Assembly: GCF_003334355.1 (NCBI RefSeq)
Contig: NZ_QOWP01000013.1
Reading direction: 5' to 3' (one strand)
Origin: Escherichia coli
GTDB taxonomy: Bacteria > Pseudomonadota > Gammaproteobacteria > Enterobacterales > Enterobacteriaceae
DNA length: 64,000 bases
In this document: one piece after another, positions 54,211-58,549 of the stretch
Numbering within the stretch: position 1 is the stretch's first letter
Layout of the letters: each line of letters begins with the position of its first letter
Program-made: the position numbers and the translations under genes
Notes under the pieces: generated by a model
What the model was told of the DNA's origin: nothing
Databases searched by the model: none
What the model saw: only the letters and a program-made list of their open reading frames with translations

Positions 54211-54242
54211 AAAAAAATACCGGCATAACGCCGGTATTTTTA
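54211..54242 (-). terminator. opgGH intrinsic terminator (bidirectional potential)
   Basis: ataccggc-ataac-gccggtat hairpin flanked by A7 and T5, located beyond the BIME downstream of opgH. Confidence 0.7.
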
Positions 54243-54258
54243 TTGGCTCGTTGTTTTT

Positions 54259-54357
54259 GCCGGATGCGGCGTGAACGCCTTATCCGACCCACAAAGTCTT
54301 GCAAAATCAATAAATTGCAGGAACGATGTAGGCCTGATAAGCGTAGCGCATCAGGCA
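54259..54357. repeat. BIME: two REPs in opposite orientation separated by a conserved spacer motif
   Basis: gccggatgcggcgtgaacgccttatccgacc ... caaagtcttgcaaaatcaataaattgcag ... ggcctgataagcgtagcgcatcaggc. Confidence 0.75.
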
Positions 54358-54366
54358 ACTACGTTT

Positions 54367-58549
<4,183 letters not shown>

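Follow-up and report, generated by a model that had tools for sequence, protein, structure and literature searches.

REP-like DNA in the last codons of opgH, beside a BIME-1 element, in Escherichia

REPs are defined as extragenic elements and are usually taken to tune gene expression without changing proteins. They occur, among other arrangements, in BIME-1 elements (RIP, RIB), in which an L linker with an IHF site joins a Y REP to a Z2 REP. The REPs of BIMEs alternate in orientation, as stated in a passage of Nunvar et al. (2010; PMC2817692). According to the RepRanger paper (PMC12306157), REPs seldom overlap protein-coding regions, and the same paper summarises work by Liang, Rudd and Deutscher (2015), in which REPs within 15 nt of a stop codon lowered the translation of the upstream gene. 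Repeats of the RU/ERIC type have been found inside enterobacterial genes (Delihas 2007; PMC2759123). A literature search retrieved no description of the opgH tail or of the BIME locus analysed here.

Here, the 3' end of opgH and its downstream DNA were analysed in a 64-kb window (the whole stretch of E. coli DNA under study) and compared with orthologous loci. The intergenic DNA between opgH and yceK holds a BIME-1, and the final codons of opgH contain a REP-like half-site, which was probably captured into the reading frame in an ancestor of Escherichia and one sister lineage.

The opgH 3' end and the adjoining BIME-1

The names mdoH (opgH) and yceK were taken from the annotation; this region of the window is 100% identical to many complete E. 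coli genomes, and the K-12 counterparts are b1049 (opgH) and b1050 (yceK). The following features were distinguished (listed from the upstream to the downstream end of the transcript, with the basis of each assignment in brackets).

54367-56910, minus strand: opgH (mdoH), 847 aa, with the stop codon TAA at 54367-54369 (region identical to E. coli K-12 b1049).
54373-54387, minus strand: lineage-specific in-frame segment of 15 nt, CCGGATGCGGCTTCG, encoding P-D-A-A-S (all Escherichia loci and the metagenomic contig L084 have it, and about 60 loci outside Escherichia lack it).
54377-54387, minus strand: REP half-site, identical to the head of the Y REP (CCGGATGCGGC), with neither a 3' half nor a CTAC foot (inverted-repeat pair, 11-mer count, empirical p = 0.0027).
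54328-54356, minus strand: Z2-type REP GCCTGATGCGCTACGCTTATCAGGCCTAC, whose stem begins 10 nt past the opgH stop (sequence reading).
54293-54327, no strand assigned: L linker of BIME-1 with an IHF consensus site, AATCAATAAATTG, at 54305-54317 on the plus strand (pattern WATCAANNNNTTR; Rfam ES036/CssrF).
54259-54292, plus strand: Y-type REP, inverted relative to opgH, whose head (54260-54270) partners the coding half-site (sequence reading and inverted-repeat search).
54213-54241, minus strand: terminator hairpin AAAAATACCGGC-GTTAT-GCCGGTATTTTT, just 5' of the yceK ribosome-binding site (inverted-repeat search and conservation).
53967-54194, minus strand: yceK, a lipoprotein gene downstream of opgH (annotation).

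Read in the sense of opgH, the spacer thus comprises 10 nt of sequence (AAACGTAGTT), the Z2 REP, the L linker, the inverted Y REP and the terminator hairpin, after which yceK begins. The element at 54259-54356 is an ordinary, textbook BIME-1 located in the 3' UTR. Its Y and Z2 REPs are inverted relative to each other, its L linker carries the IHF consensus site, it is extragenic (between the opgH stop and the yceK terminator), and every E. coli genome has it in multiple copies, the median number of matches to a 501-nt query that contains it being 29 per genome. The Y REP (54259-54292) agrees with its consensus, GCCGGATGCGGCGTGAACGCCTTATCCGGCCTAC, at 32 of 34 positions. No REP features are annotated in the opgH-yceK region of the RefSeq K-12 record. 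The Rfam model RF02751 (ES036, CssrF) matched positions 54293-54335 (+) with 47.9 bits, against a gathering score of 37.6. This match covers the L linker with its IHF site plus the REP feet and would reflect the repeat family rather than a locus-specific sRNA gene; the Rfam family itself appears to model the repeat linker and not a unique sRNA gene. In addition, weak sub-threshold matches to naRNA4 (REP325) cover both REPs, one of them reaching into the opgH tail (54331-54398).

The terminator hairpin has a 12-bp stem with a T-run and is kept in essentially all of the 80 orthologous loci. A scan with a terminator consensus missed this minus-strand terminator (54213-54241), probably because the T-run is absorbed into the 12-bp stem; the assignment was made by inverted-repeat search and by conservation across loci. 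Elsewhere in the window, palindromes of the GCCGGATG type (21770-21840 and 52121-52147) start 8-9 nt past the stop of the upstream open reading frame, and none of them overlaps coding sequence. Their spacing matches the 10 nt found at opgH and agrees with reports that REPs cluster directly past stop codons.

E. coli OpgH ends in RKPDAASQ, 8 residues after the LNPxAL motif, and the DNA of the tail codons reads gcgaagccgcatccggttt on the plus strand (54372-54390). The 15-nt segment and the final codon CAA (Q, 54370-54372) together stand where related genera have a single terminal Lys. The preliminary description had recognised in these codons a REP half-site that is inverted relative to the REP at 54259-54290, and both points were borne out: the half-site is the exact 11-nt reverse complement of the Y REP head, and an inverted-repeat search returned a perfect pair (CCGGATGCGGC at 54260-54270, GCCGCATCCGG at 54377-54387) with 106 nt between the arms. 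This inverted repeat had been described as spanning the stop codon and the terminator; it does enclose the stop codon, along with the Z2 REP and the L linker, but the terminator at 54213-54241 lies outside its arms. The statement that the BIME itself extends into the last codons of opgH did not hold literally, since the stop codon and the 10-nt spacer intervene and the half-site lies outside the alternating architecture of the element.

The half-site occupies codons 842-845 of opgH (Pro-Asp-Ala-Ala), and PDAA is what a REP head encodes in the frame of the tail. It possesses a REP head (11 of 11 positions identical to CCGGATGCGGC, 15 of 16 to a REP-like hairpin of Citrobacter sedlakii), but it forms no palindrome or stem-loop, because GCTTCGC is followed by AATAAAAACG and not by a 3' half of the TTATCCGGC type. 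Its location within codons and the missing CTAC after it likewise set it apart from a complete REP, and it is parted from the BIME proper by the stop codon and the 10-nt spacer. As its orientation is that of the adjacent Z2 REP, it does not count as a further REP in the alternating series of the BIME. By hand alignment, the tail and the head plus loop of the Z2 REP agree at 13 of 16 positions with one gap.

Three exact copies of the 11-mer are present in the 64-kb window, two in true REPs and one in the opgH tail. To obtain a chance level, 27-nt windows of opgH coding sequence were compared, without gaps and in either orientation, with the consensus sequences of Y, Z1 and Z2 REPs. The score of the tail was reached by 0.27% of 19,489 windows (empirical p = 0.0027), and its best local match to a REP consensus ends after the 11-mer. 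A 6-bp inverted repeat, ATTGCG...CGCAAT on the opgH strand (54369-54374 / 54392-54397), brackets the tail codons and overlaps the stop; it was not seen in other genera and is small enough to have arisen by chance. The tail adds five residues to the C-terminus of OpgH, which might conceivably affect the protein or its mRNA. None of the solved structures covers this C-terminal region, and the sequence comparison, structures and folding examined here gave no evidence of an effect of the tail on OpgH function.

Distribution of the tail and of REPs past the opgH stop

The 3' end of opgH and the downstream DNA were compared at 82 orthologous loci. A scan of species-representative genomes supplied 80 loci, to which K-12 and two metagenomic contigs were added. 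At about 60 of the 82 loci, opgH is not followed by a REP, the protein ends three residues past LNPxAL (KAK, KTK or RKK, then the stop), and the terminator starts 18-23 nt past the stop codon. These short-ended loci include the Citrobacter freundii group, Enterobacter, Kosakonia, Leclercia, Lelliottia, Buttiauxella, Phytobacter, Atlantibacter and others; Klebsiella and Kluyvera are also short-ended, judging from protein database matches. On this comparison, the short end is the ancestral state.

An 8-residue end of the PD(A/E)ASQ type was found only in the window, in six further loci of Escherichia type (L001-L006) and in two metagenomic contigs (L081 and L084). The following variants were observed.

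RKPDAASQ: E. coli, L002 and L001 (the latter a divergent Escherichia)
RNPDAASQ: L003
RKPDATSQ: L004 (E. albertii)
CKPDAASQ: L005
RNPAAASQ: L006 (E. whittamii)
RKPDEASQ: metagenomic contigs L081 and L084

Every tail-bearing lineage has a REP or BIME downstream, and no species without a downstream REP carries the tail, or the same tail codons, among the loci compared. The expectation that the C-termini of genera lacking the repeat would differ was thereby confirmed, given the KAK, KTK or RKK ends of about 60 loci. Salmonella had been named among the genera lacking this BIME. Its C-terminus does differ from that of E. coli, but Salmonella has a REP at this place too.

L084 (ERZ1034915 NODE-628) is a metagenome contig of 23 kb from an uncultured enterobacterial lineage and carries both the tail and a BIME-1. 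Its gene order (lpxL-mdtG-msyB-yceK-opgH-opgG) follows that of E. coli over 13.5 kb, with about 82% nucleotide identity. In a neighbour-joining tree of opgH, L084 is the sister of Escherichia, and Citrobacter, with C. sedlakii, groups with Salmonella in another clade, which argues for a single gain of the tail on the stem of Escherichia and L084. L001 (CP089930.1, labelled E. coli strain E69) contains the L linker and the Y REP at 3098-3210, lacks the Z2 REP and has identical PDAASQ codons. Its opgH has diverged by about 9.6% from that of the window and clusters with E. albertii in the tree. At roughly 10% divergence, L001 is not E. coli sensu stricto and represents another Escherichia species, so that its spacer was rejected as a Z2-less E. 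coli allele.

A protein with the exact PDAASQ tail and 80% identity to E. coli OpgH (P0144 / L083) was considered as a distant tail-bearing lineage and was discarded as a chimeric sewage-metagenome assembly; its N-terminal ~480 residues stem from a distant species and its C-terminal ~370 residues are 100% E. coli. The ENA metagenome contig L081 ends in an Illumina adapter, AGATCGGAAGAGCACACGTCTGAAC (505-532), a contamination from untrimmed reads. Several OpgH fragments from the database (P0010, P0039, P0096, P0097 and P0100, one of them labelled Shigella flexneri) end in a shared out-of-frame peptide, which suggests frameshifted opgH 3' ends that stem from pseudogenes or from assembly errors.

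REPs of types unrelated to one another follow the opgH stop in Enterobacter, Salmonella, C. sedlakii, Buttiauxella and Superficieibacter. In Enterobacter (L027-L033, L037, L040, L042) and at L071, L072 and L078, they lie about 10-50 nt past the stop, an Enterobacter example being GGGCGGGTAAGCGAAGCGCCACCCGCC. The spot between the opgH stop and the conserved terminator is a recurrent hot spot of REP insertion. Most of the non-Escherichia lineages with a REP there, Enterobacter among them, keep the short KAK-stop end.

The OpgH of Salmonella likewise has 847 aa. Its 8-residue end, QGR(T/A)SS(A/V)G, has the length of the E. coli tail and an unrelated sequence, and a Z-like REP starts 9-10 nt past the stop (L035 diarizonae and L038 arizonae, at ~3050-3140; P0032, P0123-P0125). 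The gene end (…TCAGCGGGATAAGG) resembled an inverted REP foot by eye; this reading was dropped, as the coding part scored p = 0.6. Salmonella groups with the short-ended Citrobacter in the opgH tree. The equal tail length in Salmonella and E. coli may be a coincidence or a property of the insertion hot spot.

In C. sedlakii (L007), opgH ends in RKP-stop and is followed, 9 nt past the stop, by an intact REP-type hairpin, GCCGGATGCTGCTTCGCGTATCCGGC, that shares 15 of 16 positions with the 16-mer of the E. coli tail, CCGGATGCGGCTTCGC. When up to two mismatches were allowed, this 16-mer was found only in Escherichia tails and in the C. sedlakii hairpin within the ~520 kb searched. The arrangement in C. 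sedlakii was considered as ancestral to the E. coli tail and rejected, as the gene tree places C. sedlakii inside Citrobacter. Its REP is hence a parallel insertion and not an ortholog of the tail, and the hairpin was counted solely as evidence that the 16-mer belongs to REP-type hairpins.

Probable origin of the tail and its predicted pairing with the Y REP

The tail probably represents REP-family DNA that was captured into the opgH reading frame on the stem of Escherichia and L084. Briefly, a BIME-1 would have been inserted between the opgH stop and the ancestral terminator, and DNA comprising the 5' half and loop of a Z2- or Y-like REP (CCGGATGCGGCTTCG) would have entered the frame on the same stem. 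In the most parsimonious scenario, 15 nt were inserted in frame between the two terminal Lys codons and the second of these changed from AAA to CAA, which would have turned RKK-stop into RK-PDAAS-Q-stop and kept the original TAA. The corresponding alignment pairs E. coli (CGT AAA [CCG GAT GCG GCT TCG] CAA TAA AAACGT) with the short-ended locus L016 (AGG AAA AAA TAA ACGT); it is A-rich at this place, and the exact boundaries of the insertion are accordingly putative. Afterwards, the segment would have persisted as a weakly constrained coding tail, no longer a REP, and its 11-bp complementarity with the head of the Y REP would be a by-product of shared REP ancestry.

The tail lies 20 nt from a true REP, and the novel DNA is exactly the part that matches a REP. 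That the repeat contributed the C-terminus of OpgH, as the preliminary description had it, is well in keeping with the restriction of the tail to REP-bearing Escherichia and L084 and with the 15/16 match in C. sedlakii; it is upheld here as a probable origin, reconstructed from a single evolutionary gain, and the consensus match taken alone has p ~0.003. As a genome contains ~300 BIME loci, roughly one adjacency of this kind could conceivably arise by chance in the whole genome. An intermediate with a full REP across the opgH stop was not found among the loci compared. A 32-nt tandem duplication of the Z2 REP was examined as a source of the tail and rejected, as the two units resemble each other over their first 16 nt and are unrelated thereafter.

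If the likeness to a REP head were coincidental, the five-residue extension would have come from an unrelated small insertion or a shift of the stop codon. Such an origin would agree with the 0.27% of random opgH coding windows that reach the same score, with a tail that has neither the 3' half nor the foot of a REP, with the equally long Salmonella tail, which was gained without REP similarity, and with the 1-3 extra residues present in several other genera that have no REP nearby. It would have to accommodate, on the other hand, a 15/16 match to a REP-like hairpin at the orthologous position of C. sedlakii by a 16-mer that, Escherichia tails aside, recurs nowhere else in ~520 kb, the exact coincidence of the novel DNA with the matching part, a true REP only 20 nt away, and the peptide PDAA, the characteristic translation of a REP head in this frame. 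Taken together, the REP-head match, the 16-mer match and the likeness to the Z2 REP make chance unlikely. The order of events might also have been the reverse, with a REP-like coding sequence present first and favouring the capture or retention of the BIME, for instance through homology-dependent copying between REPs. The joint appearance of tail and BIME on one branch would suit this order as well, as would the repeated arrival of unrelated REPs past the opgH stop (Enterobacter, Salmonella, C. sedlakii, Buttiauxella, Superficieibacter); these other lineages, however, acquired their REPs without a REP-like coding tail, so that a half-site was not needed as an attractor, and we regard the reversed order as quite improbable.

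Capture of REP-family DNA into opgH also agrees with the changes that the tail has undergone since. Of 5420 complete E. coli genomes, 5150 match the 61-nt stretch around the tail with 100% identity. Between L084 and E. coli, OpgH (847 aa) shows 96.9% identity in protein and 84.6% in DNA; 342 of its codons differ synonymously and 26 non-synonymously, and in the tail these numbers are four and one (small numbers). Tail length and frame are kept across Escherichia and L084, at 15% nucleotide divergence and with near-saturated synonymous sites. Third-position changes in the tail codons were seen in L084 (AAG, CCA, TCT, CAG) and E. albertii (CCT, GCA, CAG), and the amino-acid changes are D to A, A to T, A to E, A to V, K to N and R to C. 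By hand count, about 8 of 13 inferred changes fall on third codon positions, which is thin support for purifying selection. The match of the tail to the REP head drops to 8/11 in E. albertii and L084. The conserved frame, the third-position bias and the decaying REP match together point to a weakly constrained coding tail rather than a maintained REP.

A different reason for the persistence of the half-site would be its pairing with the head of the Y REP. As a functional long-range RNA or DNA element, an 11-bp clamp that encloses the stop codon together with the Z2 REP and the linker with its IHF site would couple the end of opgH translation to the folding of the BIME, to mRNA decay or to read-through into yceK. 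When the naked minus-strand RNA 54420-54196 was folded, the helix between tail and Y head was part of the minimum-free-energy structure, with pair probabilities of 0.94-0.95, and the predicted fold was far stabler than those of shuffled sequences (z = -5.5). With the coding region held unpaired, the Y head was predicted to pair with the Z2 head, making the BIME one long hairpin, so that tail and Z2 REP would compete for the Y head. The near-invariance of the tail DNA within E. coli might be added in favour of such an element, but it is no more than expected for a species at such divergence. Neither conservation nor compensation of the helix was detected in E. albertii, E. whittamii or L084, that is, outside E. 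coli and its nearest clades: about 6 bp remain in E. albertii, an A-to-C change in the E. whittamii tail is not compensated, and the tail of L084 (CCAGATGAAGC) can pair with its Y head (TCGCATCCGAC) at about 5 of 11 positions. The tail is moreover occupied by translating ribosomes, and local REP hairpins would form first during transcription. As the helix is not conserved, it was treated as a by-product of common REP ancestry, and retention of the half-site for pairing would be very improbable.

An extension of the same idea, to which we give even less credence, is a translation-sensing switch in which the half-REP in the coding sequence persists as a functional partner of the Y REP and the helix with the tail competes with that between Z2 and Y heads. 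If such a switch existed, each ribosome that terminates on opgH would flip the BIME from one fold to the other, and this toggle would set the stability of the mRNA 3' end, the accessibility of the IHF site or read-through into yceK, by means of a device built from repeat DNA that straddles a stop codon.

Comparison with known systems

Given an origin from REP-family DNA, the opgH locus would be a clean and datable counter-example to the extragenic definition of REPs, half a REP having become the last five or six residues of a conserved inner-membrane glucosyltransferase and having been inherited as coding sequence across the whole genus Escherichia. For annotation, it would mean that a REP-like 11-mer at the end of a gene need not be an error, and the locus may serve as a small case study of the remodelling of stop-codon regions by repeats that are active at an insertion hot spot.

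The element at 54259-54356 has the same composition as described BIME-1 elements, including a linker with WATCAANNNNTTR; the coding half-site differs from it in lying outside the element, beyond the stop codon, and in being oriented as the Z2 REP. At 10 nt from the TAA to the Z2 stem, the locus falls within the distance (<=15 nt) at which REPs were reported to lower the translation of the upstream gene and, by analogy, the Z2 REP may lower that of opgH; this effect, which would involve ribosome stalling and tmRNA tagging of the upstream protein, concerns the Z2 REP and not the coding half-site. The tail itself is most akin to small repeats and MITEs that encode new peptide segments, in that in-frame repeat DNA adds residues to a conserved protein. 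It differs from intragenic elements of the RU/ERIC type in that the donor would be a REP, of which only half the palindrome (15 nt) is present, at the very C-terminus. The opgH locus is thus a combination of known kinds, a BIME-1 and repeat DNA probably captured into a coding end, and not a new mechanism or system.
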